This document shows, piece by piece, positions 3,616-29,956 of a stretch of DNA of 42,078 nucleotides (position 1 is the first letter of the stretch; each line of letters starts with the position of its first letter). The notes beneath the pieces are model-generated. The model made no database searches, was not told where the DNA came from, and worked only from the letters and a program-made list of their open reading frames with translations. The stretch lies in assembly GCA_964403465.1 (NCBI GenBank), contig CAYOFY010000006.1, positions 1-42,078 of the forward strand. Direction: 5' to 3'. The DNA comes from an uncultured bacterium. GTDB lineage: Bacteria; Ratteibacteria; UBA8468; B48-G9; JAFGKM01. The position numbers and the translations under genes were made by a program.

Positions 3616-4193
3616 ATTTTTTCAAAGGTTTTTCTTGTTTTAATCGGATACTTGTCAAGCATATCCGTTATCTTTGTTTTCTGCAATTTGCCCAGAGAGA
3701 TTGAAGAGGCGTCAAATTTGTATTTGCCGAAAGAATAAAGGTAGACCGCATCAAGGAAAGCTTTTTCTTTTAAGGCAATGAAGATGCCTTCCTTCTTTTC
3801 AAATCCGAAATACAATGCAGTTTTTATTTTATAGTAATTGAAAACGGCGCTGTCCGCATTGAACTTTCTCGTCCTTTTCAGGGAAACGCTTTCATAGAAA
3901 CTGCGCTGAACCTGCGTTGAGACGTCATAAAATGCAAGTGCGCTCATGCACGATATATAAGAAGGTACCTGCAGGATATTGGCGAGTTTTAAAACATCTT
4001 CGTATTGCAGATTATCCCATTTCTCTCTGATTACGTAAAAATCCCTTTTCAATCTCACGACAAGGCCTTGTTGCTTCATCCTGGAACAAAGCACCCTTGC
4101 CGAAGAGGGATTGATGTTCAGTATTTCAGATATTTCCCCGGCTCTGAAAAATTTCCTGTTTTTCAGGTTGTTTCTTAGTGTGATATAGTTCAT
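3603..4193 (-). CDS. abiEi: Type IV TA antitoxin, AbiEi-family transcriptional regulator
   Basis: N-terminal wHTH (RLKRDFY), PSYISCMSALAFYD and IA..EKAFLDAVYL. Overlaps the abiEii start. Confidence 0.85.
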   Translation of the reverse strand: MNYITLRNNLKNRKFFRAGEISEILNINPSSARVLCSRMKQQGLVVRLKRDFYVIREKWDNLQYEDVLKLANILQVPSYISCMSALAFYDVSTQVQRSFYESVSLKRTRKFNADSAVFNYYKIKTALYFGFEKKEGIFIALKEKAFLDAVYLYSFGKYKFDASSISLGKLQKTKITDMLDKYPIKTRKTFEKIWTI

Positions 4194-4281: not shown

Positions 4282-4542
4282 TTATTCAACCTCTATCTCC
4301 ACGTTTTCAAGGATGAATTCCCTGCTTGCCGGGTTATCACTTCGTTCTATATGTATTTCAGCGTTTTTATAGAGAGGGTTTTCCTTCACCATGGAGCGGA
4401 ATACAAAGTTGATGTTTTCCTCGTCAATGCAGCTGCAGGGGTTTACGGTAAGGTTGATTTTCAGAAAGGATTCCGCATGTTTCTCTTTCTGCACCTTCTC
4501 AAGTATTTTCAGCAGGTTTGTTACCACGGAAAGTTCGTGCAT
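4282..4542 (-). CDS. hypA: Hydrogenase nickel chaperone HypA, short form lacking the Zn finger
   Basis: N-terminal MHELS Ni-binding motif and C-terminal EFILENVEIE. Only 86 aa, with no CxxC...CxxC pair. Confidence 0.8.
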   Translation of the reverse strand: MHELSVVTNLLKILEKVQKEKHAESFLKINLTVNPCSCIDEENINFVFRSMVKENPLYKNAEIHIERSDNPASREFILENVEIEVE

Positions 4543-4568
4543 TTTTTACAACCTCACCCGGGTTTTTA

Positions 4569-4919
4569 TTACTCGCCGCTTTCGTCTGAAGGGCGGGGAC
4601 GTGCGGGGTAGATTTTTTCGTCTCCGGGCTTCTGCCAGATTTTTATCCCCGAAATGTCGGATGCCCTGGCGAGAGCGTGGGTGGCAGTCGGGGAATTGAG
4701 GAAAAGGAAGACAAGGCAGACGATGGCTTTAATCCCTACGGCGGAAAATCCCTTCATTACAAATACGCCGAGCAATATACTGCCGGTTCCAAGGGTGACG
4801 CATTTGGTGGCTGCCTGCAGACGGCAATAGACGTCAGGCATTCTTATAAGCCCGATGCACCCCATGAGTATGAAGCACAGTCCTGTTGCCATCAGGATAT
4901 AGACTATGAACTCAATCAT
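4569..4919 (-). CDS. mnhG: Mrp/Mnh antiporter subunit G (MbhC-like)
   Basis: IGLIRMPDVYCRLQAATKCVTLG and P.ATHALARA motifs. Confidence 0.9.
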   Translation of the reverse strand: MIEFIVYILMATGLCFILMGCIGLIRMPDVYCRLQAATKCVTLGTGSILLGVFVMKGFSAVGIKAIVCLVFLFLNSPTATHALARASDISGIKIWQKPGDEKIYPARPRPSDESGE

Positions 4920-5166
4920 CTAAATTCCTCCCTTCCAGGAATTTTGCAAAAGTGATGGTGCTTACGAATCCCAGGATAGACCATGCAATGGCTATGTTCA
5001 TATAGAATTCCGCTCCGGTTGACAATGCGAGCAGGACGCAGAAGATGATTACTATGATGCCGAGAATGTCAATTCCAACCATCCTGTCCGCTGCCCTGGG
5101 CCCCCGAAAAATCCTGTAGATGCACAGAGCGACGCAGAGCGTCAGGAATGAAAATAAGAGAATCAT
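4912..5166 (-). CDS. mnhF: Mrp/Mnh antiporter subunit F (MbhB-like)
   Basis: RIFRGPRAADRMVGID and LGFVSTITFAKFLE; three hydrophobic segments. Confidence 0.9.
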   Translation of the reverse strand: MILLFSFLTLCVALCIYRIFRGPRAADRMVGIDILGIIVIIFCVLLALSTGAEFYMNIAIAWSILGFVSTITFAKFLEGRNLDD

Positions 5167-5648
5167 TCAAATACCTCCTTAAGAATTTTCTGAAGGTTGC
5201 CGCATATTAATTCTTCCGTTCTGGCCGGGTCCTCCGTAACCACGTATATCCAGTGTACATAAAGAAAATCTTCCGTGATGTCCATTGTAAAAGTGCCGGG
5301 AGCGAGCGTAATGGAATTTGCCAGGATGGTCCGGCCCAGGGGAGATTTAAGGTACAGGGGCATTTTCACAACGCCGGGTTTTATGGGAGGACCGGGACTC
5401 AATACCCTGTAAACCATTATGATATTTGCCTTGAACATCTGTTGCAGGAAAACAAAGAAAAATTTAAAGAAAATAACGTATCTCCTGATCTGAAAGGCTT
5501 TTTTAGGATGGTAGGGAAATTCTTTTCCGAATATTGCCGTTACAAAGGCAGATACCACCGCTCCCGCAATAAGATTAGCCGGTTCAAAAGACCATGTTAC
5601 CGCATACCAGACAATGAGGTTGAGGATAAACACAAGCAGATAATTCAT
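5163..5648 (-). CDS. mnhE: Mrp/Mnh antiporter subunit E (MbhA-like)
   Basis: PIKPGVV, LANSITLAPGT and LYVHWI motifs. Confidence 0.9.
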   Translation of the reverse strand: MNYLLVFILNLIVWYAVTWSFEPANLIAGAVVSAFVTAIFGKEFPYHPKKAFQIRRYVIFFKFFFVFLQQMFKANIIMVYRVLSPGPPIKPGVVKMPLYLKSPLGRTILANSITLAPGTFTMDITEDFLYVHWIYVVTEDPARTEELICGNLQKILKEVFE

Positions 5649-5651
5649 TAT

Positions 5652-7130
5652 TTAATCTCCTATCGCTATACTGGTATAAGAAAAATTGCCCATCACATCC
5701 ACGGCTTTATCCATACACGCTTCCCTTATGCCGGGGATAAGAAGGATGCCGGCAAATACCGCCATGAAGGCAAGCACGGTCATGGGAACCAGCATCCCTG
5801 CGGGCGCTTCCTTCTTCACGGCATCCCCTGCCTTGCTGCAGTAAACGGTCCTTTGAAGTTTGAGGAAATAGCCGAGAGTCATTACGGCCACAATAATGCA
5901 TAAGGCCGCTATTCCGGCATACCCCGCCTGTACAGCGGCAAGTATGATAATGAGTTTGCTCCAGAAATTGCCCATCGGAGGAATGCCTGCTATTCCAAGC
6001 ATGCCTGTGCTTGAAAGCAGCGTTGTGTGGGGCATTCGGTCATTCAGTCCATTCAGTTTTTCCGTATCGGTTGTTCCCGTCATGTACTCCACCGCCCCGA
6101 CATTCAAAAAGAGCAGGGACTTGGAAAATGCGTGTGAGATGATATGCATGAGAACCCCGAGATTGCCCAGATAGCCGCCTATTCCCAGGCCTATCGCGCA
6201 GTATCCTATCTGGCTTATGGTTGAATATGCGAAAATCCGTTTTATGTTTTTCTGTCCGTATGCCGCCACGCCGCCCAAAACCATTGAAAGCATTCCGAAA
6301 GTAAGCAGAAGTATCCTCATCTGCGGAATGTCGGTGAATATGTTGGAGGTAAGCCGGATAATGGTATAAAAACCCACCACCTTGATGAACAGCCCTGAAA
6401 GCAATGCCGATACCGGCGCAGGAGCCATTGAGTGGGCGTCCGGTAGCCAGGCATGAAACGGCACAAGGCCTGCCTTAATGGCAAATCCGGAAAGAAAAAG
6501 TCCCACGGTAAACCATAAACGGATCTGCGGTGCGGTGGCTGTCGCATGCAAAAATGCCGGGATGCTGAGGGTTCCCGTGATTCCGTATATCATGGCAATA
6601 GCGAACAGTATAAGGGTGGAGGAGATGAAGCTCATAACGGTATATTTCAAAGATGCCTCAAGTTCTTCCGCTCTCAGCCCGAAAGACACGATAATAAAAG
6701 AAGATATGGAGGCTATTTCAAAAAAGACGAATATGTTGAAGAAATCCATGCTTATGAGAATCCCGTTCATCCCGGCCAGCATGAGCATGAAAAGTATGAA
6801 GAAATAGACCGCACGGTTATATTTTTTCATATAAACTATGGAATATATCACGATGATGAACGCAACGGCGTTTGTCAGCACGAGGAACAGGCAGGAAAGA
6901 GGGTCTGCCATCAACGCTATGCCGAGGGGCTTCGTCCATCCGCCCACAAAGTAGATAATCCTTCCGCCCGCAAAGACTGATATGGACAGCAGGACGGATA
7001 CAACAAGGCTCAGGAACGCAAATGCAGAGGCGGCGATTCCCGCAAGAAAGTCATCCTTGCCGCTGAGCAGCGGCAGAAGAAATGCGGCTCCCAGATAAAT
7101 GACGACAGGGAAAATTATAAGATGGTTCAT
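5652..7130 (-). CDS. mnhD: Antiporter-like proton-conducting membrane subunit, MrpD/MbhH type
   Basis: GGW..PLGI, DFFNIFVFFEI, EASLKY, KAGLVPFHAWLPDAH, KRIFAYSTISQIG and GIPPMGNFWSK. Confidence 0.9.
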   Translation of the reverse strand: MNHLIIFPVVIYLGAAFLLPLLSGKDDFLAGIAASAFAFLSLVVSVLLSISVFAGGRIIYFVGGWTKPLGIALMADPLSCLFLVLTNAVAFIIVIYSIVYMKKYNRAVYFFILFMLMLAGMNGILISMDFFNIFVFFEIASISSFIIVSFGLRAEELEASLKYTVMSFISSTLILFAIAMIYGITGTLSIPAFLHATATAPQIRLWFTVGLFLSGFAIKAGLVPFHAWLPDAHSMAPAPVSALLSGLFIKVVGFYTIIRLTSNIFTDIPQMRILLLTFGMLSMVLGGVAAYGQKNIKRIFAYSTISQIGYCAIGLGIGGYLGNLGVLMHIISHAFSKSLLFLNVGAVEYMTGTTDTEKLNGLNDRMPHTTLLSSTGMLGIAGIPPMGNFWSKLIIILAAVQAGYAGIAALCIIVAVMTLGYFLKLQRTVYCSKAGDAVKKEAPAGMLVPMTVLAFMAVFAGILLIPGIREACMDKAVDVMGNFSYTSIAIGD

Positions 7131-7477
7131 CCCTTCAGCCTCCGTATTTTATCAGTATCAAAAGTGCCGTATTTTTCAAAAATTCTTATTGCAAGAGCGG
7201 CAAGAAAAGCAGCAAAACCCAGGTCTATTACTATTGATGTAAGAACCAGAGCTTGAGGCAGAGGGTCTACGGCTGAGGCCTGAAACTGTTCAAGCGGCAT
7301 ATCCTGTATAATTATGGGTGCAATGCCGTTCCATTTGTATCCCAGGAGAATAAAGAAAAGGTTAAGGGCATATCCCACAATATTCATCCCCACGATTATC
7401 TTGATGATGTTCTTCTTGGCTATCATTCCGTACAGCCCTATGAAAAATATCAGTGCCACAAGCAGGTAGATTATCAT
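7127..7477 (-). CDS. mnhC: Mrp/Mnh antiporter subunit C (MbhG/NuoK-like)
   Basis: IGLYG...KNIIKII, VDPLPQALVLTSIVI and YGT.D...IRRLKG. Start moved to ATG 7477, which has an ATGA overlap and GAGGAG RBS. Confidence 0.88.
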   Translation of the reverse strand: MIIYLLVALIFFIGLYGMIAKKNIIKIIVGMNIVGYALNLFFILLGYKWNGIAPIIIQDMPLEQFQASAVDPLPQALVLTSIVIDLGFAAFLAALAIRIFEKYGTFDTDKIRRLKG

Positions 7478-7944
7478 TTCTCCTCCTCGCTCTGCCTGTA
7501 CTTCACACCCTTCCTTATGTGGACAAGACGTGCCATGGAGAGTGTGACTATGGCGATGAAAAGCGCCGAGCCGACTTTTATCCCTATCATGATATTGCTG
7601 AACAGCAGTGTTCCTCCTCCCCATAGATGGAATAATCTTCCCTTGGGGAGAAGATTGAAGAAAAAAGAGCCGCCTGCAAGCCCGAACAGAGCGATTGAGA
7701 GGAATCCGAGGGCTCCGATGCTGTCAAGGGCTTTTGCTATGCTGCGGGGGAATATCCTTAAGGCATATTCGTGTCCGAAGGCAAGCAGAAGCAGGACGAA
7801 GCCGCCTGTTAAAACAACCCCTCCGGCAAAACCGCCTCCAGGTGTAACATGCCCGTACAGGACAATGGAAATTCCGAAAACCATTATGAATGGGAAGACT
7901 ATCTTGGATACACTCTTGACAATTTCGCTCATTCCCTTATTCAT
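7474..7944 (-). CDS. mnhB: Mrp/Mnh antiporter subunit B (MbhF-like)
   Basis: YGHVTPGGGFAGG and IGIKVG motifs. Confidence 0.9.
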   Translation of the reverse strand: MNKGMSEIVKSVSKIVFPFIMVFGISIVLYGHVTPGGGFAGGVVLTGGFVLLLLAFGHEYALRIFPRSIAKALDSIGALGFLSIALFGLAGGSFFFNLLPKGRLFHLWGGGTLLFSNIMIGIKVGSALFIAIVTLSMARLVHIRKGVKYRQSEEEK

Positions 7945-8467
7945 CTCGTCTCCCCCTGGTTCTCAACAGGACAAGGACGCCGATTATGGCGGTAAAGATA
8001 ACCGTTGCTTCGCCGAGGGTATCGTAACCCCGGAAATCCAGCACTGTCGAGGTGACGGCGTTTGCCGCATGCAGTCTTGTAATGGATGAAGCGAGGTATC
8101 CTGCGCCCATTGTTATCACGGGTTCGCCGAAAGGCCGGAACATCTCCTTGAAATGTATCATGAAGACAAGCAGGAAAACAGCAAAGATTACAAGCGTAAT
8201 TCCCCCGTAAATTCCGGAAGAGGTCATGTCTGCAGCTGATTCCCTGTGTATGATTGACAGAAGCACGACGAGAGCCACGATTTCAACGAACACCTGAACT
8301 ATGGCTATATCCGGCGCGCCGAGCAGCAGGAATAGAATGCTCAATATGAGCCCGGCCGTGCCCATGGACACGATTGAAGATGTCAGGCTTCTTGCCGTGA
8401 TGGCAATCACAGAGCCGGTAGCCATAAGAATCAGCAGTGAAACCAGAAGGGGTGTATTGACCGTCAT
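7937..8467 (-). CDS. MbhD/MbhE-like membrane subunit (DUF4040 + MrpA C-terminal-like region)
   Basis: LGAPDIAIVQ..VE and NAVTS.VLDFRGYDTLGEATV. Start moved to ATG 8467, which has an ATGA overlap and GGAG RBS. Confidence 0.85.
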   Translation of the reverse strand: MTVNTPLLVSLLILMATGSVIAITARSLTSSIVSMGTAGLILSILFLLLGAPDIAIVQVFVEIVALVVLLSIIHRESAADMTSSGIYGGITLVIFAVFLLVFMIHFKEMFRPFGEPVITMGAGYLASSITRLHAANAVTSTVLDFRGYDTLGEATVIFTAIIGVLVLLRTRGRRDE

Positions 8468-10290
8468 CTCCTGATAACCTCCATTAGGAAAATAATGCCT
8501 GCAAAAATCCACACGATATATTTTGGAAGAAGACCGTTCTGCAGCAATTTTAGCTTTTTCACGGACAGATCCAAAATTTCGCTTCCCCTGGAATACGCAG
8601 AATCTATTGTTTTTACTGCACATTGCCGGAAAAATCCGCTTATCCTGGGTACAACCTTCTCCGCAATCTGATATATATCAAGTTTTCCGCGGGACTCTGC
8701 GGAATAAAATTTGCTCATGGGGACAATATCCCTGACCGTGCCGTAGAAGTGAGAACCGTCAAAAGCGGTCATCTCCCCCGGGATCGTTTCGCCACCGATA
8801 AAAGTCTCCGTCTTCCTTGAATTTTTTATCCACCTTCTCCCTGCACTGAACAGCAGGCAGAATACCGCGATTGCCAGCCATCCGTAGAAACTTGCCATCC
8901 GTATAAGTTGCAGGTTCAAGGGCACGTATTCTCCGATGGCAGGGAAAAGGAATCTCTCGGTTACCACGCCGGGGAAAATCCCGAAAAGCAGGCATCCCGC
9001 GGCAAGCAGAATCATGGGGATATTCATGAAAGGAGAGGATTCGTAACGCTGGCCGGGAATCTCCCTTTTCTTCACCCCCATGAATGAGTCGTTCAGCACT
9101 TTTATGAAAGATGCGAGAGTCAGGACGCTTCCCAGCAACGCGGCCAACATGGCAAAGATGGCAAGTTCGCCGCCCTTTGCAAGCAGCGCCTGGTAGATGA
9201 GCCATTTGGAAACGAACCCGTTGAACGGAGGCATCCCGGAGATGGAAAGCGCGGCGACGGTCATCACCCCGAATGTAAGCGGCAGTTTCCTTGCAAGCCC
9301 TCCGTAATCTCCCAGTTCCCTTGACCCTGTCGCCTTGATGAGAACGCCCGCTCCGAGGAACAGGAGGCTCTTGAAGACCGCATGGTTTATCACGTGGTAC
9401 AGTGCGGCCACCAGTCCCATGCTCGTTCCGCAGGCAATCCCCAGGAAGATATAGCCTATCTGGCTTATGCTGTGGTAGGCAAGCAGACGTTTTATGTCAT
9501 GCTGGACCAGTGCAAGGAATACTCCTCCCAGGAGCGTTATTACCCCGATGAGAATCATGATTGTTTCCCATCCTATGGACCAGGACGGCTTGAAGATAAC
9601 AAAGTAGAATCTTATCATCGCATATATCCCTGTCTTTATCATTATTCCGGAGAGCATGGAGGAGACAGGGGTGGGAGCCGCGGGATGAGCATCGGGCAGC
9701 CATGTGTGCAGGGGAAATATGCCGGCCTTGATGCCCGTGCCTATGAGCATGGACAGGAAGAAGAGGTGTTTCCACAGGATATTTGCATCCACAAGCCATA
9801 TCCCCAGTATGCTGAAGAGCAGAAAGATGCTTCCGGCGCCGGTCATGATGATATATTTGAAAGAGGCCCTGCGCGCCTCTTCCGTATCGTTGAAAAGGAC
9901 AAGGAAGAAACTTGCAACGGCCATTATTTCCCAGTAAACGTACAGTGCAATCAGAGAATGGGAAAGAACGACGCCGTTCATTGAGCCGATAAAAAGGAAG
10001 AGCAGTCCGTCATAGGCAAAATCGGCTTCCGGGTTATACCACTGGGAATACGATACGCTGAAAAGGCTTATCGTTGAGATGAGCGTTGCAAACAGAAGGC
10101 CGAGAATCTCTCCGTGAGAAAGGGACATGTAATTTACATACATTGAATAGAAGCAGCTTGCGGTTACTGCCACGCCGCCCGCAAGGGATATCCATTTTCT
10201 GTAAGCCCTGCCGGCCCTGCAGAAAAGGATATGGACAAAAGCCGTCCCGAAACTGATTGCCACCGGAAGAAACCAGACGTTGACGTTCAA
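8464..10290 (-). CDS. Antiporter-like proton-conducting subunit (NuoL/HyfB/MrpA-like) with long C-terminal extension
   Basis: YVYWEIM, KAGIFPLHTWLPDAHPAAP, KRLLAYHSISQIGY, NHAVFKSLLFL and GMPPFNGFVSKW. C-terminal region ending LQNGLLPKY resembles the lateral helix/anchor. Confidence 0.88.
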   Translation of the reverse strand: MNVNVWFLPVAISFGTAFVHILFCRAGRAYRKWISLAGGVAVTASCFYSMYVNYMSLSHGEILGLLFATLISTISLFSVSYSQWYNPEADFAYDGLLFLFIGSMNGVVLSHSLIALYVYWEIMAVASFFLVLFNDTEEARRASFKYIIMTGAGSIFLLFSILGIWLVDANILWKHLFFLSMLIGTGIKAGIFPLHTWLPDAHPAAPTPVSSMLSGIMIKTGIYAMIRFYFVIFKPSWSIGWETIMILIGVITLLGGVFLALVQHDIKRLLAYHSISQIGYIFLGIACGTSMGLVAALYHVINHAVFKSLLFLGAGVLIKATGSRELGDYGGLARKLPLTFGVMTVAALSISGMPPFNGFVSKWLIYQALLAKGGELAIFAMLAALLGSVLTLASFIKVLNDSFMGVKKREIPGQRYESSPFMNIPMILLAAGCLLFGIFPGVVTERFLFPAIGEYVPLNLQLIRMASFYGWLAIAVFCLLFSAGRRWIKNSRKTETFIGGETIPGEMTAFDGSHFYGTVRDIVPMSKFYSAESRGKLDIYQIAEKVVPRISGFFRQCAVKTIDSAYSRGSEILDLSVKKLKLLQNGLLPKYIVWIFAGIIFLMEVIRR

Positions 10291-10302
10291 GCAAACCCTC
10301 CT

Positions 10303-11673
10303 TTACAATACCAGAAAAATGCCAAGAACCAGCGAAACCGTAGCCAGTATGACTATGGAAACATTCATGGGTCTGAATCCAGACCTATCAAAATCTGTTT
10401 CCCTGCCTTCTCCCATGAAAACGTACCTGAACAACCTGAACAGATATACCAGTGTAAGCGCAGAAGTTAATATTGCCGCGAATGCGAAAATTATGTGTTT
10501 TGTAACAAGGATCCCCGTGATGGCCTCCAGTTTGCCGAAGAAGCCGGGCAGTGGCGGTATCCCTATGACCGAGAGCATGCTCAGAAGGAAGGCGTAGGTC
10601 AGGACAGGCGTCTTCTTCATAAGGCCTCCCATCTCTCGCACGTCTCTCGTCCCGAAAATCTTTTCGGTCATGCCGGCGCACAGGAAAAGGCATCCCTTTC
10701 CGAGCGCGTGTGCCACGTAGAAAAGCAGGATTCCGCGGACAGCAATCGCGTTGAACATGACAAGTGCCGCAATCATGAAGCCCAGCTGGCTCACCGTTGA
10801 AAAGGCGAGTATCTTCTTGATATCCGTTTCTTTCATTGCCACCAGACCTGCCGCGAAACTGCTGAAGAGGGCCAGCCATCCAGCCCACATCACATTTCCT
10901 GAAACTATGAGTGTCGCACCGAAGAGCCTTGCCAGCCCATAGATGCCGATTTTCACGAGAACCGCCGCATGCAGGAACGCGGTAACCGGGGTTGGGGCAA
11001 CCGAGGCGTCCGGCAGCCACGTGTGGAACGGGAATGTGGCGGATTTCGTCAGGACGCCCAGGAAAAAGAGAACGAAAACGAACTGGGGTACCTGGGAATA
11101 AAGCATATGCGAGATACTGAATGTACCCGTAAAGCGGTATATGTAGGAGAAGCCCAGGAACATGAACCCTGCCCCTGCCCCGGTGAGGAGGAAGGCCTTG
11201 TCCGCCTTCAACAGGTGGTCATCCTTCCTGTAGAACCCGATGAGACGCCACGAGCACAGTCCTGCCAGTTCCCAGAACAGGTATAGGGAAATAAGATTGT
11301 CAGAAAACACAACACCCATCATGCTGCCGACAAAAACAAGACCCCAGAAGGCAAATTTCTGCTGCTCCTCCGGGGATTCCCCGGCAAAATAACCGGTGGA
11401 AAACAGGTAGATAAGCACGCCGATGAAAACGGATGTCAGGGCGAAAATAATGCTCAGGGCGTCACATGTGAAAAGGAGGTTTTTTGCATCAAGAACGAGA
11501 ATCCTTTTCAGGATAAATACCGGTTTCACAAGGGATGAAGACAGAAACAACTGTATCAGCAGAACAAGAAAGCCGCCCCTGATGGAAAATCGTCCGGGCA
11601 GAAGTCTTATGCCGAACGCTCCCAGGAAGGGGAGTATGAGCGCCGACAACAGCAAGAAACTATTTTTCTCCAT
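10303..11673 (-). CDS. Antiporter-like proton-conducting subunit (NuoL/NuoM-like, short)
   Basis: YLFWELAG, KSATFPFHTWLPDASVAPTPV, KKILAFSTVSQLGF and GIPPLPGFFGK. Confidence 0.88.
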   Translation of the reverse strand: MEKNSFLLLSALILPFLGAFGIRLLPGRFSIRGGFLVLLIQLFLSSSLVKPVFILKRILVLDAKNLLFTCDALSIIFALTSVFIGVLIYLFSTGYFAGESPEEQQKFAFWGLVFVGSMMGVVFSDNLISLYLFWELAGLCSWRLIGFYRKDDHLLKADKAFLLTGAGAGFMFLGFSYIYRFTGTFSISHMLYSQVPQFVFVLFFLGVLTKSATFPFHTWLPDASVAPTPVTAFLHAAVLVKIGIYGLARLFGATLIVSGNVMWAGWLALFSSFAAGLVAMKETDIKKILAFSTVSQLGFMIAALVMFNAIAVRGILLFYVAHALGKGCLFLCAGMTEKIFGTRDVREMGGLMKKTPVLTYAFLLSMLSVIGIPPLPGFFGKLEAITGILVTKHIIFAFAAILTSALTLVYLFRLFRYVFMGEGRETDFDRSGFRPMNVSIVILATVSLVLGIFLVL

Positions 11674-12297
11674 TTACCTGCTTTCCTTTTTCTCGTCGCT
11701 GATAAAGGCGATTCTCCTGCAGCGGGGGCATACTATTTTCAGCATATCCGTTCTTTGCACCGGAGGCGTGAATTTCTCCTCCGCGTCGGTTCTTATCTCC
11801 AGTTCTTCCATGAGCCGGGATACCATCACCGGCTGTGCAAATCCGAGGTTTTTCACCCGCCGGAATGTCCAGATAATATGTTTTTCTGTACCTATTATCT
11901 CCCCGCAATCACTGCATACGAGAAGTTTGTGCTGGATTGAATTTGTGACGTCCTTCTCGTCAAAATAGGCGATGTCAAATTTCGTTGACAATTTTATGCC
12001 TTCCTTGGTGATGCAGTTGCGCTCGCACTCGCCGCAGAAGATGCACTCGGCCGGGTGGTGCACCAGCGTTCGCGTGCCTGACCCGTCGTTGTTGACAGTA
12101 TCAATCATCTCAATGGCTTTTGCAGGGCATACCTGGAAACATGCACCGCATCCGACGCAGCCATCCTCGTTGTATTCCGGTTTTCCCCTGTATCTCTTCG
12201 GAGCCGCATACGGCTTGAACGGGAAGCCCGTCGTGAACGGCCTTGAGAATAGACTTGTAATTGCCTCCCTCAATTCCCTTATCTTGGGTTTCTTCAT
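11674..12297 (-). CDS. NuoI/HycF/MbhN-like 4Fe-4S subunit
   Basis: YRGKP...CVGCGACFQVCP and CIFCGECERNC, plus CSDCG and CPRCRR. Confidence 0.9.
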   Translation of the reverse strand: MKKPKIRELREAITSLFSRPFTTGFPFKPYAAPKRYRGKPEYNEDGCVGCGACFQVCPAKAIEMIDTVNNDGSGTRTLVHHPAECIFCGECERNCITKEGIKLSTKFDIAYFDEKDVTNSIQHKLLVCSDCGEIIGTEKHIIWTFRRVKNLGFAQPVMVSRLMEELEIRTDAEEKFTPPVQRTDMLKIVCPRCRRIAFISDEKKESR

Positions 12298-12298
12298 A

Positions 12299-13504
12299 TC
12301 AAATCTCTTTCCTTATCTTTTCGGTCTTCTGCACTGACGTCTCAACCAGTTGCCGGAAATCATAAATCTGCTTCTTCCTGTTACCGGCATCGTAAACCGC
12401 CACCCTTTCAGTACAGCAGTAGCAGGGGTCCACTCCTGCCAGGATGATCGCAACATCGGGTATCATCTGCCCGATGCAGCTGGCCTTGAATGTCGGTATA
12501 TTCGTATAACTGGGGGCACGTATCTTATGCCTCACCGGCCTGTTTGTACCGTCGCTTCTCACGTAGTGGAAGCATTCTCCTCTCGGGGCCTCGTGATGCC
12601 CGATACCTTCTCCGGGCGGGATTTCCCTTATCTCGTTCTGTATCTCCCCGCCTTTCCCTTCAATGGCGTCAAGAGACTGCTCTATTATCTTTATGGACTC
12701 AAACATCTCAAGGAGTCGTACCACCGCCTTATCAAAAACATCGCCGTGTTCAGCGGTTATAACCTTAAAATCCAGCATGGGGTATGCGGCGTAAGGGTCA
12801 TCCTTTCTTATGTCTCCCGATACTCCGCTTGCCCTGGCGACCGGACCCACCGCTCCGAAATTCTTGATATGTTCTTTCGTCAGTACCCCGACGCCTTTCA
12901 GGCGCGCCCCGAGGACAGGGTCGTCAAGCACCGCATGTGTCAGCATTTCCACCTGGCCCTTCAGTCCTTTCAGCACTTTTCTGAGCGCGGGCATATCCTC
13001 TTCCTCTATGTTCCTTCGAACCCCGCCTATCTTGAACATTGCATAGTGATTCCTATTGCCGGTTATTATTTCAAACATGTCCAGAACCGGCTCGCGGTAT
13101 TTCCATGCCCACATGAATACGGTGTTGTAGCCCAGGAAATGCCCGGCAAGTCCGACCCAGAGGAGATGGCTGTGAATCCTTTCCAGTTCTCCGACGATGC
13201 ACCTTATGTAACCTGCCCGTTCCGGGACCGTTGAGCCCAGAAGATCCTCAACCGCGTTGCAGTACGCGAAAGGATGCGAGGTTGAGCATATGCCGCATAT
13301 CCTTTCCACGAGGAAGGTCACCTGGTCCCAGTGCTTGCCCTCGGATAGTTTCTCTATCGCCCTGTGGTTGTATCCCGCCTGCCACTCAACATCCACGACC
13401 TTTTCCCCGTCGCAGTAAAGGGCGAAAAACTCCGGTTCTTCCAGAAGCGGATGATACGGTCCTATCGGTACGATTACTTTTTTCTTCCCCTTGTCTTCAG
13501 CCAT
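12299..13504 (-). CDS. Group 4 [NiFe]-hydrogenase large (catalytic) subunit
   Basis: L1 ERICGICSTSH and L2 DPCYCCTER retain all four Ni-Fe cysteines. Also PIGPYHP, GYNHRAIEK and HEAPRGE, with a 34-aa extension after the L2 Arg. Confidence 0.93.
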   Translation of the reverse strand: MAEDKGKKKVIVPIGPYHPLLEEPEFFALYCDGEKVVDVEWQAGYNHRAIEKLSEGKHWDQVTFLVERICGICSTSHPFAYCNAVEDLLGSTVPERAGYIRCIVGELERIHSHLLWVGLAGHFLGYNTVFMWAWKYREPVLDMFEIITGNRNHYAMFKIGGVRRNIEEEDMPALRKVLKGLKGQVEMLTHAVLDDPVLGARLKGVGVLTKEHIKNFGAVGPVARASGVSGDIRKDDPYAAYPMLDFKVITAEHGDVFDKAVVRLLEMFESIKIIEQSLDAIEGKGGEIQNEIREIPPGEGIGHHEAPRGECFHYVRSDGTNRPVRHKIRAPSYTNIPTFKASCIGQMIPDVAIILAGVDPCYCCTERVAVYDAGNRKKQIYDFRQLVETSVQKTEKIRKEI

Positions 13505-13925
13505 TTTTTCCCTTCCTCAGCGGATAATTACCTTTTTCCCAGTCGTCGCGCAGGAGGAAATGCGTCAAGCCCGGGTGCCCGGTAAAGTTGATCCCGAGCA
13601 GTTCCTTCATCTCCCGTTCAATATAGGAAATGCCGGGTATTATGTCAGTCATTGACTCAATCTCGGGATTTTTCTTGTCAAGATAGGTCCTGACGGAAAC
13701 AACCGTTCCTTCGCTGTCAAACCCGAAATGGTACAGTATCTCGAAAGAGTCGAAGTTTTCAACGCCCGAAGCGACGATATATCTTGCATCAAGGTCCCCG
13801 AAGATTGTTTTTATGCAATTCTTGACGGCTGCCCTGTCAACTGTTATATAAATTCTCTTGTTATTGTGCTTCACTTCCTTTATAACTGCGCCGAGTCTTT
13901 CTTTCAGTTTATCAAGAACGTTCAT
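13497..13925 (-). CDS. NuoC/MbhK-like subunit
   Basis: FEILYHF, IEREMKELLGINF.GHP and YPLRK. Start moved to ATG 13925 (ATGA overlap). Confidence 0.88.
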   Translation of the reverse strand: MNVLDKLKERLGAVIKEVKHNNKRIYITVDRAAVKNCIKTIFGDLDARYIVASGVENFDSFEILYHFGFDSEGTVVSVRTYLDKKNPEIESMTDIIPGISYIEREMKELLGINFTGHPGLTHFLLRDDWEKGNYPLRKGKNG

Positions 13926-14338
13926 TTCAGTTTCTCCAGCAGTTTCACTATCCCGGCGATCATCGCCTCGGGTTTTGGCGGGCAACCCGGGATATACACG
14001 TCCACGGGTATAAGCCTGTCAAGGGGGCCCCCCATCTGGGGTCCTTCCCTGAAGATACCACCGGTACAGGCACAGGCTCCTATGGCAACCACGACGCACG
14101 GCTTTGCCGTCTGCGCATATACCTCTTTTACCCGCTCAATGCACTTCTTGTTCACTATGCCCGTGCAGAGGAGTACATCCGCATGCCTGGGGCTGCCCAC
14201 AAGAACCATCCCGAATCTTTCAATGTCAAAACGCGGGGTAAGACAGTCAAGAATCTCTATGTCGCAGTTATTGCAGGAACCGCCAGACATATGGTAAACC
14301 CAGAGCGATTTCTTCAATGCCTTGATTTTCAGACCCAT
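13922..14338 (-). CDS. Group 4 hydrogenase small subunit (NuoB/MbhJ/HycG-like)
   Basis: GSCNNCDIE, SPRHADVL, GACACTGG and VYIPGCPPKP. Confidence 0.93.
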   Translation of the reverse strand: MGLKIKALKKSLWVYHMSGGSCNNCDIEILDCLTPRFDIERFGMVLVGSPRHADVLLCTGIVNKKCIERVKEVYAQTAKPCVVVAIGACACTGGIFREGPQMGGPLDRLIPVDVYIPGCPPKPEAMIAGIVKLLEKLK

Positions 14339-14344
14339 TTCAAG

Positions 14345-15274
14345 TTACCATCCCTTTACAGCCAGCAGAACACCTATAACGCCGAGAAGCGTAAGCCATC
14401 CCCAAAAGAACCTTAACGCCTGGTCTATCCTCAAACGGGGATTCGTGTTTTTTATAAGGACGAACAGTACCAGAATAAAAAGGTATTTCAATATCCCCAG
14501 CAGGATGCCCGTGAACGAAGAAAAAAACATCCCCCCGAGGTAAAGAGTGACGACAAACAGCGGGCCAACTATGAGCAGCATGGCCTTGGCGAGTTTGAAA
14601 AGCCCCAGCAGGATGCCGGAATATTCTATGAAGGCGCCTGAGGCAAGTTCTCCTTCGGCTTCAGCCAGGTCAAAAGGAACGAGCCCTATCTTGCCCTGCA
14701 GCGCAAAAACCGCTATGATGAAGCCGATGATGCCCGAAAGTGACCCCAGAGTCATGCCGTTCGCGTTCTGAAACCGGATAATATCCACCATTGAGGTTGT
14801 TCCGGAGCTTTTCACCGCGGGTATGATAAGGGCGCAGACGAACGGAAGTTCATATCCGAGAAGGAGTTTTATCTCCCTGCTTATTCCCACGGATGCCAGG
14901 ACGTTTCCAGAAGCGCTTCCACCCAGTATTATGGCGAGGGAAGGAACGGTCATGAGGTAAAGAAGGAGGATGGCATCGCCGGGGAAAGCGAGACCTGTTC
15001 TGAAGACGAGTAATATTATCGTTCCGCAGACAGAGGTAGCCATGACCGCGAGAACCGGTGCGAAAACGAACATGAAAACACTCGCTTTTTCAGGTATCAT
15101 TGTTTCCTTGCCCGCAAGTTTTGCAAAATCCGCGAAGTTCTGGTACCAAGGCGGTCCCACCCTGAACTGAAGTCGTGCCGTGACCTTTCTTTCCGCCCAC
15201 ATGGCAAGCAGACCGCATATGCCGAAAACCGCAATGCTCATGACAAAGTAAAGAAGTATGTAAAAAGCATTCAT
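14345..15274 (-). CDS. NuoH/MbhM/HycD-like membrane subunit
   Basis: ERKVTARLQFRVGPP, DFAKL..KE, PFDLAEAEGEL..G..IEYSG and PRLRIDQ. Confidence 0.92.
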   Translation of the reverse strand: MNAFYILLYFVMSIAVFGICGLLAMWAERKVTARLQFRVGPPWYQNFADFAKLAGKETMIPEKASVFMFVFAPVLAVMATSVCGTIILLVFRTGLAFPGDAILLLYLMTVPSLAIILGGSASGNVLASVGISREIKLLLGYELPFVCALIIPAVKSSGTTSMVDIIRFQNANGMTLGSLSGIIGFIIAVFALQGKIGLVPFDLAEAEGELASGAFIEYSGILLGLFKLAKAMLLIVGPLFVVTLYLGGMFFSSFTGILLGILKYLFILVLFVLIKNTNPRLRIDQALRFFWGWLTLLGVIGVLLAVKGW

Positions 15275-15762
15275 TTTTTTATTGCGTTAATGTCCAGCCA
15301 GTTGAGAACCCTGACCAGGATATTATCACCCAGTTGATAAAAGTTCTTCCTGTCCTCTATCTTTTCTTCATCCAGATATTGCACGGCGCCGTTCCTGCAG
15401 CTTGCGGCACAGAGGGGCTGTTCTCCTTCCCTGAGTCTTCCAAGACATGCATCGCACCTGCTCACAAGATATGGTATCAGTTCGGGCAGTATGGTGCCGA
15501 ACGGACAGGCGAGGGAACAGGTTTTGCATGACACGCACAGTATTTTAGAACGTTTGACCAAACCCGCTTCCCGTTTTAGCGCTCCTGTGGGGCAGCTATT
15601 CACGCACGGATAATCTTCACACCTCCTGCATGCGAACATAAACGCAAGTTCTTCCCGCAGTCCTGTTATCCCGTTATTTTCAGGGTGCATCCAGTAACTG
15701 CACTTTATATCCGCACTCCCTGATTCCAGCAGTTTGTCGTAATCAATATACAGTTTCTTCAT
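15271..15762 (-). CDS. DmsB/HydN/CooF-type Fe-S electron-transfer protein
   Basis: CRRCEDYPCVNSCP, CVSCKTCSLACP and CDAC...PLCAASC. The first Cys motif is degenerate. Confidence 0.85.
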   Translation of the reverse strand: MKKLYIDYDKLLESGSADIKCSYWMHPENNGITGLREELAFMFACRRCEDYPCVNSCPTGALKREAGLVKRSKILCVSCKTCSLACPFGTILPELIPYLVSRCDACLGRLREGEQPLCAASCRNGAVQYLDEEKIEDRKNFYQLGDNILVRVLNWLDINAIKK

Positions 15763-15769
15763 TTTTCTT

Positions 15770-15830
15770 ATTCGCCCTCATCCCTGTTTCCCTCTTCCTT
15801 GAGGGGAGAGGATTAAGGTGAGGGTGAAAT
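15770..15830. repeat. BoxC/REP-like intergenic stem-loop
   Basis: ATTCGCCCTCATCC...CCTCTTCCT-TG-AGGGGAGAGG...GGTGAGGGTGAAAT: nested inverted repeat with a pyrimidine-rich left arm and purine-rich right arm. Confidence 0.65.
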
Positions 15831-16661
15831 TCATACCCAGATATTCGGCTTGTTCTTTATCTGGTCGTACGTGAACACCGGACCGTCCTTGCATACAAAC
15901 AGGTCTCCGATGAGGCAGTGCCTGCACTGGCCTACCCCGCAATACATCTTCCTTTCCATGGAAAGGTATATCTGCTGGTCACTGTACCCTATTTCCAGCA
16001 GTTTCAGCGTCGTAAACTTCATCATGATGGGCGGCCCGCAGACGACAGCCACGGAATTCTTTATGTCAATATCAATGCCGTCCAGGGTCTTCGTGACCAC
16101 CCCTTCTCCGTACTTCCACTTATCGTCCTTCCTGTCAACGGTTATCCGGAAACAAAGGGGCAGTTTCTTGCAGAGAGTATGCCATTGGTCCAGTATCTTA
16201 TCCTTGTATATATAATCATCCGGTGTCTTGGCCCCGCAGCAAAAGACTATCTTCCTGTAGTTATTCACCGTTTCCAGAAGTGCGAGGAAAAGCGCCCTCA
16301 GGGGGGCAAGTCCCACGCCTCCCCCGACCAGGAGTATCTCTTTTCCCCTGTAATAATCCAGGGGATACGGTTTCCCGTAAGGGCCTCTGACTCCGACGCT
16401 GTCGCCTGCCTTGAGGTTGTGTATCTCTGCCGTAACCCTGCCCGCCTTCATCACCGTGAATTCCAGAGTTTCCTTCTGATAGGGGGAAGAAGAGGGCGTG
16501 AAAGGTGCTTCGCCAACACCCGGCACTGTCAGGGACGCAAACTGCCCCGCCAGAAAAGAAAACTCTTTTTCAGGTTTGAGAATAACCGTTTTTATCGTGG
16601 GCGATTCGGTTATTACCTCCAGCACCTTGCACCTGATAGGCTCGTAAATATTCTTATCCAT
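15831..16661 (-). CDS. FAD/NAD(P)-binding oxidoreductase with 2Fe-2S cluster (AsrB/HydG/FlxA/PyrK family)
   Basis: AGQF...GEAPF, GRVT, GVRGPYG, GGGVGLAP, VCGPPIMM and ERKMYCGVGQCRHC...VCKDGPVF. Confidence 0.92.
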   Translation of the reverse strand: MDKNIYEPIRCKVLEVITESPTIKTVILKPEKEFSFLAGQFASLTVPGVGEAPFTPSSSPYQKETLEFTVMKAGRVTAEIHNLKAGDSVGVRGPYGKPYPLDYYRGKEILLVGGGVGLAPLRALFLALLETVNNYRKIVFCCGAKTPDDYIYKDKILDQWHTLCKKLPLCFRITVDRKDDKWKYGEGVVTKTLDGIDIDIKNSVAVVCGPPIMMKFTTLKLLEIGYSDQQIYLSMERKMYCGVGQCRHCLIGDLFVCKDGPVFTYDQIKNKPNIWV

Positions 16662-16663
16662 GA

Positions 16664-17683
16664 CTACATCTTCCTTTTTTCCCTCAAGATTTCCGTCACC
16701 ACCCGTCGCTTGTCAATCTTTCCCGCGCATCCCGCGATGCACCTTCCGCATCCGGTGCATCCCTTCATGCCGAAGTTCTCAACCATGTACCAGTACTTGC
16801 AGAGTAAACGGTTTGCGTACCTGTCGTAAAGCGTAGGTCTCGGAGAGGTGCCTGCTGCCATCCTTGCGTAGCCGGGAAAAAGACAGCTGTCCCATACCCT
16901 TGTTTTCCGCATCTCTTTCTGGTTGCCCGTATCTTCAAGGAGGAAACACACGCAGGTAGGGCAGTTGTTCGTGCAGCTCCCGCACTGCACACAGTTTTCA
17001 ACCTCTTTCGGCATCTTCCATAACTCGGTCTGGTATGCGCCCTTCAGGTCTTCAATGTTCGCGAAGTCAAAATCCCTGTTATTTTCCCTTATCGTTTCAA
17101 CCGCCTTCTGTCTGTTTATGTCGCGTTTCCTGATTTGCTCGCCCGTGGTCTGGAAAAACTTCTGGTCTTCACCGATGAAGGATTTTCCTTTATCCGTGCC
17201 CACCTCTACCAGAAAACCTTCTTCAAACTGGGAAAGATTCAGGTCAAAATTTCTTTCCGGATAAGGATGCAGGAAACCGAGAATTTCGCAGAAACAGGAA
17301 GGGTAAGGAGATATGCAATCAAAACTGACGATGAGGGTTCTTTCCCTCCTTGCCGCATAGTTTGGGTCTTTATATTCACCATCTCTGAATACCCTGTCAA
17401 GTATCTCCAGCCCCTTGAGGTCGCAGGCCGCGGGTCCCATGATCACGGTATCCCCTATGCCGGTGACAGACGGTACGACTCTTTCCTTGAACGGAAAGAG
17501 CATCAGCTTGAGCGGTTCAACCGGCCTTGCCCTGTTATATACGATGCTCGTCTCATTGCCGGGTGCAATTCTCTTGTAGAAAAGAGCGCCATTGAAATCA
17601 ACGGGGGCAAATATCCTGGACATGCCGTTCCTGCCTTTGATGAAACTTTCCCAGTCTTTCCGGGCTATGTAGAGGGTCTCCAT
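16664..17683 (-). CDS. 4Fe-4S protein, AsrA/HydB (sulfhydrogenase beta)/FlxB family
   Basis: ACDL, D..Y..RRE, C...SCFC, CVQCGSCTNNCPTCVCF, RVWDSC and GCTGCGRCIAGC. Confidence 0.9.
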   Translation of the reverse strand: METLYIARKDWESFIKGRNGMSRIFAPVDFNGALFYKRIAPGNETSIVYNRARPVEPLKLMLFPFKERVVPSVTGIGDTVIMGPAACDLKGLEILDRVFRDGEYKDPNYAARRERTLIVSFDCISPYPSCFCEILGFLHPYPERNFDLNLSQFEEGFLVEVGTDKGKSFIGEDQKFFQTTGEQIRKRDINRQKAVETIRENNRDFDFANIEDLKGAYQTELWKMPKEVENCVQCGSCTNNCPTCVCFLLEDTGNQKEMRKTRVWDSCLFPGYARMAAGTSPRPTLYDRYANRLLCKYWYMVENFGMKGCTGCGRCIAGCAGKIDKRRVVTEILREKRKM

Positions 17684-17701
17684 TTGTGATTTTTTTCACA
17701 A
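17684..17701. promoter_or_regulatory. Palindromic operator matching the Rex box (also fits the CRP-family core TGTGA-N6-TCACA)
   Basis: TTGTGATTTTTTTCACAA, one mismatch from TTGTGAANNNNTTCACAA. It abuts the operon start codon and lies downstream of the predicted promoter. Confidence 0.7.
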
Positions 17702-17724
17702 GCCAATTTAAAAAAATGATGAAT

Positions 17725-17753
17725 AGGATAAAGCCCCGCTGATTTCTTGTCAA
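17725..17753 (-). promoter_or_regulatory. Sigma70 promoter of the hydrogenase operon
   Basis: TTGACA (17753-17748), 17-nt spacer, TATCCT (17730-17725). Confidence 0.65.
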
Positions 17754-17819
17754 ATTTTTCGAAAAAGACGGTATATGCTACCAGATAACTTTTCGCATGT
17801 CAACAGAGAAATATTTCTT

Positions 17820-29950: not shown

Positions 29951-29956
29951 AAAGGT

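Follow-up and report, generated by a model that had tools for sequence, protein, structure and literature searches.

The stretch of DNA analysed here (the window) comprises 42,078 nucleotides (nt), positions 1 to 42,078 of contig CAYOFY010000006.1 in assembly GCA_964403465.1, from an uncultured bacterium of the Ratteibacteria. Between 17683 and 4282 of its minus strand, 18 open reading frames (ORFs) run in one direction and, judged by gene content and motifs, form a Hun operon, a design that has already been published and named (Glass et al., 2021; bioRxiv 10.1101/536078). The assignment was made because all 16 Hun subunit types lie in one co-directional cluster and because the large subunit, HunG, carries the motif pair CGIC/CYCC. 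HunA and HunB stand at the head of the cluster without AsrC, the equivalent of HunP has been relocated, and there is one gene extra. Gene families were assigned by Pfam, additional names were taken from NCBIfam and solved relatives from the PDB (Table 1). The 18 co-oriented, tightly packed genes described in an earlier note on this DNA all exist as ORFs, each with the Pfam family given there.

With corrected starts, neighbouring ORFs overlap by 4-8 nt or are separated by 0-26 nt, the sole wider junction being the 68 nt from hunB to hunC (15762-15831), in which a sequence scan found no terminator-like site. Translations and ortholog lengths indicated that the longest-ORF starts are too long for the nuoC-like, mbhDE-like and mrpC-like genes, for which the likely starts are given in Table 1. 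Orthologs of hunF are mostly 139-166 amino acids (aa) long, with a few longer longest-ORF calls, while those of hunK are mostly 105-117 aa and its Oxidored_q2 match begins at residue 52 of the long ORF. Judged by its gene packing, the 18-gene cluster is a real, intact and well conserved operon, whose anatomy the earlier note had read correctly; since the same cluster recurs in 80 related loci, it is not due to chance.

Table 1. Genes and predicted regulatory sites of the hydrogenase locus, in window coordinates
Feature	Position	Strand	Remarks
Promoter-like site TTGACA-17-TAGCAT, TG before second hexamer	17775..17803	-	consensus match only
Promoter-like site TTGACA-17-TATCCT	17725..17753	-	consensus match; the promoter predicted by the earlier note
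Predicted Rex-type operator TTGTGAAAAAAATCACAA (gene strand)	17684..17701	.	one mismatch; directly abuts hunA ATG
hunA, HydB/AsrA-like iron-sulfur subunit	16664..17683	-	339 aa; Pfam Fer4_22 5.5e-27
hunB, HydG/AsrB-like flavoprotein (FAD, NAD(P) site, [2Fe-2S])	15831..16661	-	276 aa; Pfam FAD_binding_6, NAD_binding_1, DHODB_Fe-S_bind
hunC, HycB/CooF-like poly-ferredoxin connector	15271..15762	-	163 aa; Pfam Fer4_11
hunD, NuoH/MbhM-like membrane subunit	14345..15274	-	309 aa; Pfam NADHdh 4.6e-62
hunE, NuoB-like hydrogenase small subunit	13922..14338	-	138 aa; Pfam Oxidored_q6 4.7e-31
hunF, NuoC-like	13497..13925	-	likely ATG 13925 (142 aa), longest ORF from 13985; Complex1_30kDa 2.1e-22
hunG, [NiFe] large subunit	12299..13504	-	401 aa; Pfam Complex1_49kDa + NiFeSe_Hases
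hunP-equivalent, HycF/NuoI-like 2x[4Fe-4S] subunit	11674..12297	-	207 aa; PDB HycF match
Extra antiporter-like subunit (MrpA N-domain / NuoL / HyfD-like)	10303..11673	-	456 aa; Proton_antipo_M 2.6e-67
hunH, antiporter-like (HyfB/MbhH-like)	8464..10290	-	608 aa; Proton_antipo_M 9.7e-64
hunI, MbhD/MbhE-like, equivalent to MrpA C-terminal domain	7937..8467	-	likely start 8467, 176 aa; Pfam MbhD + MbhE
hunJ, MrpB/MnhB-like	7474..7944	-	156 aa; Pfam MnhB 2e-22
hunK, MrpC/NuoK-like	7127..7477	-	likely start 7477, 116 aa; Oxidored_q2 1.5e-25
hunL, MrpD/NuoN-like antiporter subunit	5652..7130	-	492 aa; Proton_antipo_M 2.1e-66
hunM, MrpE-like	5163..5648	-	161 aa; Pfam MNHE 3.5e-38
hunN, MrpF-like	4912..5166	-	84 aa; Pfam MrpF_PhaF 2.3e-16
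hunO, MrpG-like	4569..4919	-	116 aa; Pfam PhaG_MnhG_YufB 6.3e-24
Short HypA	4282..4542	-	86 aa; Pfam HypA 3.4e-11, profile positions 1-67 of 112
AbiEi/AbiEii toxin-antitoxin pair (AbiEii nucleotidyltransferase toxin, AbiEi antitoxin regulator)	2911..4193	-	between hypA and hypB-hycI
Fused hypB-hycI maturation gene	1760..2887	-	375 aa; Pfam cobW + HycI

Hydrogenase Core and Maturation Genes

With a NuoD-like subunit that bears the four Ni-Fe cysteines, a NuoB-like subunit and a NuoH-like subunit, the operon is predicted to encode a group 4 membrane-bound [NiFe] hydrogenase. The cysteines, read earlier as intact, are indeed present in both motifs of HunG, RICGICSTSH at L1 (C70, C73) and DPCYCCTER at L2 (C361, C364). 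The best PDB matches of HunG were MbhL (6cfw_L, 2.8e-89) and HycE (7z0s_E, 1.5e-86). Among the 120 HunG homologs listed, CGIC occurred in all 120, CYCC in 116 and CYSC in 1, and no L2 motif was found in 3, at least two of which are labelled partial.

HunG ends in a C-terminal extension of 34 aa after R367, and a maturation set for a cleavable extension of this kind is encoded by a HypB-HycI fusion in the window, a short HypA and a HypD elsewhere in the genome. The fusion joins an N-terminal nickel-insertion GTPase to a C-terminal endopeptidase for the large-subunit C terminus, with NCBIfam scores of 268 bits for HypB (cut-off 121.2) and 100.8 bits for hydrogenase maturation protease (cut-off 47.45); it is the sole HycI-family match in the genome. 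Since hypB-hycI belongs functionally to the hydrogenase, the functional unit reaches past 4282-17753. In related loci a hycI protease gene usually comes next after the cluster; hypB and hycI are separate, overlapping genes in loci L007 and L011, and the fusion is probably also present in locus L003. The hypA gene listed in the earlier note is there, but it encodes the nickel-binding half only (67 of the 112 profile positions): the protein starts with MHE, the N-terminal nickel site, lacks the zinc-finger CxxC pairs and falls below the NCBIfam cut-off. HypA proteins of 84-92 aa are likewise encoded at the operon end in L002, L003, L007 and L011, and the form in L062 has 117 aa.

Electron-input Module

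The single PDB match of HunA was the beta subunit of Pyrococcus furiosus sulfhydrogenase I (SHI; 9nez_B, 6.8e-40), and the best match of HunB was the gamma subunit of the same enzyme (9nez_C, 1.6e-53), followed by PyrK at ~1e-20 and NfnA-type proteins at 7e-13. This agrees with the HydB/HydG-type module that had been recognised previously. The alignments to beta and gamma are near full length and preserve the groups of cysteines, the motifs for FAD and for the dinucleotide, and the [2Fe-2S] site. Across 28 orthologs, 15 cysteines of HunA are invariant. In the corresponding alignment of HunB (28 sequences, 50-86 % identity), the motifs GxGEAPFTPSSSP (FAD site) and GGGxGxAPxR (dinucleotide) are invariant or nearly so, and GPPxMM and the four C-terminal [2Fe-2S] cysteines are invariant. 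HunB is the most conserved of the three input subunits, with a mean column identity of 69 %. In the stretch after the second strand, a K/R of HunB aligns with an Arg of SHI gamma and may represent a 2'-phosphate contact.

HunC was matched best to HycB4 (7qv7_B, 7.3e-14) and to HycB of formate hydrogenlyase (FHL; 7z0s_B, 2e-12), and the HycF-like subunit is nearer to HycF (7z0s_F, 4.1e-20) than to MbhN (6cfw_N, 3.8e-11). As the earlier note proposed, the module is predicted to be joined to the group 4 core, with the HycB-like and HycF-like subunits as the links between both. The input side is thus built like that of formate hydrogenlyase, in that subunits of the HycB and HycF type would join a HydB/HydG-type dehydrogenase to the core. 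A complex prediction for HunA, HunB and HunC (with alignments, and HunC as partner) returned a score of 0.00; it was run without controls and speaks neither for nor against binding. Among the operon proteins, Pfam detected only one flavin-binding domain.

None of HunA, HunB, HunC, HunG or the antiporter-like subunits reached an NCBIfam equivalog cut-off. HunA scored 166.9 bits against ShyB (cut-off 690) and 145.7 against HydB (750), HunB scored 187 bits against HydG (cut-off 650) and 184.8 against ShyC (600), and the Asr models also remained below cut-off, at 112.6 bits for TIGR02910 (323.15) and 212.4 for TIGR02911 (288.6). By these scores HunA and HunB resemble the beta and gamma subunits of group 3b enzymes but fall outside those equivalogs, as subfamilies of their own. 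No AsrC-like siroheme or sulfite-reductase domain was found by Pfam among the 18 ORFs; membership in the anaerobic sulfite reductases AsrABC was ruled out by the missing AsrC ORF and the sub-cut-off TIGRFAM scores. As a separate observation, environmental counts of 'sulfhydrogenase' by homology to the gamma subunit (ShyC) at 35 % identity (PMC9324843) could catch the HunB of Omnitrophota and Cloacimonadota.

Membrane Arm

Two antiporter-like subunits had been counted previously, and they stand if mrpD is counted separately; in all, however, three proteins of the operon carry Proton_antipo_M (the extra subunit, hunH and hunL; Table 1). HunH matched the NCBIfam model of hydrogenase 4 subunit B at 9.9e-96, below the model cut-off. 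The extra 456-aa subunit matched PDB MrpA (7qru_A, 4.4e-55) over chain residues 13-493, the N-terminal antiporter domain, and the NCBIfam matches of the hunI product fall in the C-terminal part (about residues 600-800) of MrpA models. The window therefore holds equivalents of all of MrpA-G, with the N- and C-parts of MrpA separate, plus a HyfB/MbhH-like subunit.

Directly after hunG comes the HycF-like gene, both in the window and in L002-L006, its nearest relatives. The extra antiporter-like gene was also found at L002-L004, L006 and L021, the last a Desantisbacteria locus in which the HycF-like gene is still last. When 65 species genomes of the phylum were searched, orthologs of the extra subunit were confined to the window's own family, where 23 of the 33 other genomes have one, and they adjoin hunG in the matches compared from three genera. 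By gene order, the extra gene is a 17th structural gene outside the canonical Hun order, apparently a lineage-specific addition.

Promoter Region and Predicted Rex Operator

Upstream of hunA, the one promoter predicted in the earlier note recurred as a match to the consensus, but it is a match only and a second one lies further upstream (Table 1). Next to the hunA start codon is a predicted Rex-type operator, scored by mismatches against TTGTGAANNNNTTCACAA, which we take to be the Rex operator consensus. Sites with at most two mismatches are expected 0.23 times per window. At one mismatch or fewer, the 1.69 Mb assembly has 2 sites, of which that at hunA is the sole intergenic one and the other lies inside a long ORF, and five shuffles gave 1, 0, 0, 0 and 0. 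The genome also encodes a Rex, whose ORF passes two NCBIfam cut-offs (242 bits against 126, and 219.8 bits against 217).

In the relatives, we searched from -250 to +150 of the hunA ORF start at the 60 loci with enough upstream DNA. A Rex-like site with at most two mismatches was present near hunA in 46 of them (5 perfect, 17 with one mismatch and 24 with two), and the rest of the same loci, 1.06 Mb that served as control, holds 5. Since the loci are kin, the 46 do not represent 46 independent events. The position of the site varies: Omnitrophota-like loci mostly have it around -18 to -27, most Bacteroidales near -200. Because the genome has a Rex gene and the promoter region a Rex-type palindrome, the operon is a predicted member of a Rex regulon. 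Rex is a sensor of NADH/NAD+; therefore the operon should switch on when NADH accumulates, which fits an H2-evolving redox valve.

Precedents and Distribution

Clusters of this design have been reported several times, each cited here from the text available. Glass et al. (2021; 10.1101/536078) name a 16-subunit Hun complex, hunA-P, in which HunAB are AsrAB-like and HunEFGP form the hydrogenase module; HunG is assigned to HydDB group 4g but set apart, with the motif pair CGIC-CYCC, and the complex is reported from Atribacteria, Firmicutes, Omnitrophica, Elusimicrobia, Bacteroidetes and Kosmotoga. That text notes the absence of AsrC and proposes ferredoxin as the donor. A group 4 cluster with Mrp, cooF, asrA and asrB was described from Saganbacteria, with nearest relatives in Zixibacteria and Omnitrophica (Matheus Carnevali et al., 2019; PMC6349859), a 'Mbh-Mrp-oxidoreductase type' was listed with its function given as unknown (Meheust et al., 2020; bioRxiv 10.1101/765248), and group 4g Mbh-Mrp enzymes, with ferredoxin assumed as donor, were reported from Omnitrophota and Cloacimonadota (Williams et al., 2021; PMC8542988). 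The exact gene order of the window may already be depicted by Glass et al. or in the 2019 and 2020 surveys. The novelty seen in the earlier note was thus overstated, since the architecture is that of the named Hun; the note had allowed for genomic precedents, which were found. It had also known of no characterised complex of this composition, and the literature searched contained neither a characterised match nor any biochemical characterisation of Hun, which was named and modelled from genomes.

For comparison, one genome per species was scanned and 80 loci around close relatives of the large subunit were collected. They come from Omnitrophota, Ratteibacteria, Desantisbacteria, Cloacimonadota, many Bacteroidales (Rikenellaceae, Marinilabiliaceae, Lentimicrobiaceae) and Cytophagales, and ORF-level annotation showed the same cluster at all of them. 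The usual order is A, B, C, NuoH, NuoB, NuoC, NuoD, one antiporter-like gene, MbhD/E, MrpB-C-D-E-F-G and, last, the HycF-like gene. At 58 of the 59 loci whose sequence extends more than 3 kb ahead of nuoH, ORFs for hunA, hunB and hunC are all present, and the exception, L079, shows hunA by tblastn; the asrAB-like genes are hence conserved next to the hydrogenase, as a synteny check suggested earlier was meant to establish. A HunG-type large subunit (E <= 1e-140) was detected in 54 of the phylum's 65 genomes; among the 31 of high quality, 28 have one.

The spacer between hunB and hunC differs among loci. Many Bacteroidales have a gap of ~500 nt at this place; the one gap that was opened (L025, 6874-7332) contains a 152-aa ORF that by eye appears to be a cyclic-nucleotide-binding domain protein. 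In the close relative L006, a 130-aa ORF of unknown kind (7295-7687) lies where the window has its 68-nt spacer.

Genomic Context of the Host

The assembly measures 1.69 Mb and is 93.8 % complete, and all absences from the genome given here are to be read with this completeness. HunG is its only PF00374 and its only PF00346 match, HunA is its only Fer4_22 protein, and its one NuoD-like gene is that in the operon. No large or small subunit of a group 3b hydrogenase was found in the genome, the sole PF00374 match being the group 4 HunG. Docking of HunAB to a separate group 3b enzyme was therefore rejected for this 93.8 % complete genome, in which no second NiFe large subunit or Fer4_22 protein was found, and the module is not part of such an enzyme, in line with the earlier note: all genes of this kind are in the operon.

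The genome encodes an Rnf complex and three 2-oxoacid:ferredoxin oxidoreductases. No [FeFe] hydrogenase was found in it, and a confurcating [FeFe] hydrogenase was accordingly dropped as an alternative outlet for NADH. Likewise, no match to acetyl-CoA synthase (CdhC/ACS) was found in the incomplete assembly, and uptake of H2 for Wood-Ljungdahl acetogenesis, a role put forward for Elusimicrobia lineages in the available text of 10.1101/765248, is for that reason not favoured. With respect to complex I, the genome yielded no NuoD subunit beyond the operon; a second Complex1_51K (NuoF-like) domain was seen in a 705-aa frame of contig C30, at about 7578-8009. The organism looks like a fermenter, and Hun appears to be the core hydrogenase of a lineage of small-genome fermenters and, in this genome, the only one.

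Neighbouring Genes

An AbiEi/AbiEii pair separates hypA from hypB-hycI, and a consensus scan found a perfect TTGACA-17-TATAAT promoter match just upstream of it (4264-4236). In the closest relative, L002, the same fused hypB-hycI follows hypA at a distance of ~50 nt, with no AbiE match between these genes; for this reason the pair looks like a recent insertion into the string of hydrogenase maturation genes.

Farther away, 27602-31425 is probably an acquired restriction-modification island, comprising a TaqI-like restriction endonuclease (27602-28420), a TaqI_C/Eco57I-type N6 methylase (28390-30213) and an adjoining tyrosine recombinase (30550-31425); the GC content is low at 28001-30000 (0.348, vs ~0.50 elsewhere in the window). 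Three large ORFs of 787, 595 and 565 aa (31619-35775 and 25859-27556) gave no Pfam match at the thresholds used. Elsewhere in the window there is a gene of the TauE/SafE sulfite-exporter family.

Electron Donor of the Hun Complex

On the whole, we lean towards reading the operon as encoding a Hun-type respiratory [NiFe] hydrogenase with NAD(P)H coupling, on the plan of formate hydrogenlyase or Mbh. Gene content, motifs, conservation, the sequence of the operator and the genomic setting are observed directly; how the subunits touch, that NAD(P)H is used, which way the reaction runs and that it is coupled to ions is what we infer. HunB (FAD, NAD(P) site, [2Fe-2S]) and HunA (several [4Fe-4S] clusters) would form a cytoplasmic pair that swaps hydride with NAD(P)(H). 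From HunA, electrons would reach the Ni-Fe site of HunG by way of the HycB-like HunC, then the HycF-like subunit and, last, the NuoB-like small subunit; at that site protons and H2 would be interconverted. The NuoH-like subunit, the three antiporter-like subunits and the Mrp-type small subunits would couple the reaction to movement of H+ or Na+. The most likely role of Hun would then be that of a redox valve which responds to NADH through Rex and discharges NAD(P)H as H2. At low H2 the reaction would proceed close to equilibrium, at higher H2 the ion gradient would assist it, and it may also go in reverse.

We likened HunAB to an NADP(H)-handling module because, among solved structures, the beta and gamma subunits of sulfhydrogenase I are closest to them; in P. 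furiosus, SHI and SHII use NADP(H) and the membrane-bound hydrogenase (MBH) uses ferredoxin, according to the available text of PMC3341082. Wiring of the HycB/HycF type is that of enzymes fed by a bound dehydrogenase, not by free ferredoxin, as in FHL. Asr, too, is described as an 'NADH-linked reductase' in the available text of PMC10949509. That HunB is the most conserved input subunit, with its FAD, dinucleotide and [2Fe-2S] motifs preserved, and that the module is essentially never lost (58 of 59 loci) likewise speak for NAD(P)H. Taken together, the evidence is better fitted by the NAD(P)H idea of the earlier note, unproven as it is, than by the printed ferredoxin proposal.

Several points weigh against NAD(P)H coupling. 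The printed models name ferredoxin (Glass et al., 10.1101/536078; Williams et al., PMC8542988, each from its available text), and the literature searched held no assay, structure or transcript of any Hun complex. Function is not simply transferable, since HunA and HunB lie far below all of the HydB, ShyB, HydG, ShyC, AsrA and AsrB cut-offs. At textbook potentials of about -320 mV for NAD(P)H and -414 mV for H2, H2 formation from NAD(P)H is endergonic in the standard state, with a cost for NADH of about 18 kJ/mol at 1 atm H2; in the direction of H2 uptake, ~18 kJ/mol would not be enough to drive as many as three antiporter-like subunits. Since the genome has Rnf, its redox balance would also be closed with a hydrogenase fed by ferredoxin. 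Finally, 14 of the 60 loci have no Rex-like site, and Rex control was rejected as proof of NADH as substrate since Rex also controls ferredoxin-dependent hydrogenases, an example being its repression of the ferredoxin-dependent membrane [NiFe] hydrogenase of Caldicellulosiruptor bescii (PMC6391272, available text). As to the energetics, a Nernst estimate places the reaction from NADH to H2 on the favourable side below roughly 60 Pa H2; the thermodynamics are thus tight, and the membrane module could either use the ion gradient to drive the reaction or gain a small amount of energy when H2 is very low.

Under the printed model, HunABC would be an extended iron-sulfur antenna for reduced ferredoxin, and the complex would, like Mbh, pass electrons from ferredoxin to H2 and export ions. 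This is what Glass et al. (10.1101/536078) propose and what is assumed for the group 4g Mbh-Mrp enzymes of Omnitrophota and Cloacimonadota (PMC8542988), as far as the available texts go; the three 2-oxoacid:ferredoxin oxidoreductases would supply the donor, the reaction is exergonic enough to pump ions through several channels, and control by Rex would be no obstacle (PMC6391272). Yet, as the example of Mbh makes clear, an enzyme fed by ferredoxin can do without a flavoprotein that has a dinucleotide site, whereas the motifs of HunB are kept in 28 orthologs and the module in 58 of 59 loci; moreover, the closest solved relatives handle NADP(H), and the Asr analogy behind the proposal concerns an NADH-linked enzyme (PMC10949509, available text). 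We therefore regard the ferredoxin-fed model as unlikely. A little less probable still is a dual-input or branch-point complex, which would take ferredoxin at HunC or at the HycF-like subunit and NAD(P)(H) at HunB, with both serving as donors for H2, or which would work in part as a membrane-coupled ferredoxin:NAD(P)+ oxidoreductase with H2 overflow. Surface-type [4Fe-4S] domains like those of the ferredoxin acceptors of Mbh are present in HunC and in the HycF-like subunit, the organism makes reduced ferredoxin as well as NADH, and the additional energy that ferredoxin brings would account for the large number of ion-translocating subunits. However, Rnf already serves ferredoxin:NAD+ exchange, and Nfn-like confurcation is improbable because only one flavin domain is detectable, leaving no second site for it.

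By analogy with what is claimed for sulfhydrogenase and Asr, HunAB might instead be a terminal reductase of polysulfide or sulfite in a complex that oxidises H2 or ferredoxin. The homology to sulfhydrogenase beta/gamma and to AsrA/AsrB, and the TauE/SafE family gene of the window, could be cited in its favour; however, the 18 ORFs include no AsrC-like siroheme subunit, an absence that the available text of Glass et al. (10.1101/536078) notes too, and intact Ni-Fe ligands together with a HycI-type protease are as in H2-evolving group 4 enzymes. We consider this role very improbable.

NAD(P)H coupling can also be put in a fuller form, for and against which we find the case evenly balanced. Hun would be a reversible, ion-gradient-coupled NAD(P)H:proton oxidoreductase, an H2-evolving counterpart of complex I whose NAD(P)H module is not homologous, and would serve a whole small-genome phylum as its single hydrogenase and Rex-gated valve. 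In the window's family it would have been extended to a full Mrp set with three antiporter-like subunits, which may shift the ion-to-H2 ratio for venting at higher ambient H2.

Significance

If NAD(P)H and H2 are indeed coupled across the membrane by Hun, the complex would fill the place of an anaerobic energy converter that has been missing. It would allow fermenters and syntrophs to release NADH directly as H2, with ions spent or gained as required and without electron-confurcating [FeFe] hydrogenases, and models that derive H2 flux in sediments, digesters and aquifers from genomes and currently label Hun as ferredoxin-dependent would need correcting. The cluster is widespread: besides the phylum genomes with a HunG-type subunit (54/65), it occurs in many Bacteroidales, in Cloacimonadota and Desantisbacteria and, according to the available text of Glass et al. 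(10.1101/536078), in Atribacteria and Kosmotoga. The value of the present copy is modest; it provides an intact Hun with a clear predicted Rex operator, a lineage-specific subunit and gene order, in a genome of which it is the sole hydrogenase found. The question of the donor (NAD(P)H-linked or not, ion-coupled or not) is sharpened by this copy, not answered.

Comparison with Known Systems

We take E. coli formate hydrogenlyase to belong to group 4a, the Mrp-linked formate- or CO-respiring hydrogenases to group 4b and Mbh to group 4d. Formate hydrogenlyase (PDB 7Z0S) and the Mrp-linked enzymes are like Hun in that a dedicated soluble dehydrogenase is connected through HycB-/HycF-like subunits to a HycG/HycE-like core, and formate hydrogenlyase shares with it the C-terminal extension of the large subunit and the HycI-type protease. 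Hun differs in having a HydB/HydG-type flavo-iron-sulfur pair in place of a molybdopterin formate dehydrogenase or CO dehydrogenase, and in the whole Mrp set of its membrane arm. P. furiosus Mbh (PDB 6CFW) contributes MbhL, the best solved relative of HunG, and has MbhD/E-like and Mrp-like small subunits as well; presumably it has one antiporter-like subunit, whereas the window encodes three. Mbh takes free ferredoxin (PMC3341082, available text) and is without HunABC. Sulfhydrogenase I (group 3b; PDB 9NEZ) has beta and gamma subunits like HunA and HunB, whose predicted partner in Hun is a membrane complex.

The nearest match is the Hun of Glass et al. (10.1101/536078), with which the window shares, on the available text, the AsrA/B-like HunAB, the iron-sulfur protein HunC, the NuoH/B/C/D/I-like core, the P- and Na-module subunits and the CGIC/CYCC motifs of HunG; the same phyla are found among the window's nearest relatives. 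The window differs in that the HycF-like gene comes right after hunG and not last, in the 17th, MrpA-N/NuoL-like gene, and in the hypA and fused hypB-hycI that follow the operon. The donor is ferredoxin in their account, whereas NAD(P)H is favoured here.

Respiratory complex I resembles Hun in its NuoB/C/D/H/I/K-like core and its three antiporter-like subunits of the NuoL/M/N type. Hun differs in that its NAD(P)H module is not homologous to NuoEFG and in that a Ni-Fe centre, predicted to reduce protons, takes the place of the quinone pocket. If NAD(P)H coupling holds, both complexes would nevertheless follow the same logic, in which the oxidation of NAD(P)H is coupled to the movement of ions.

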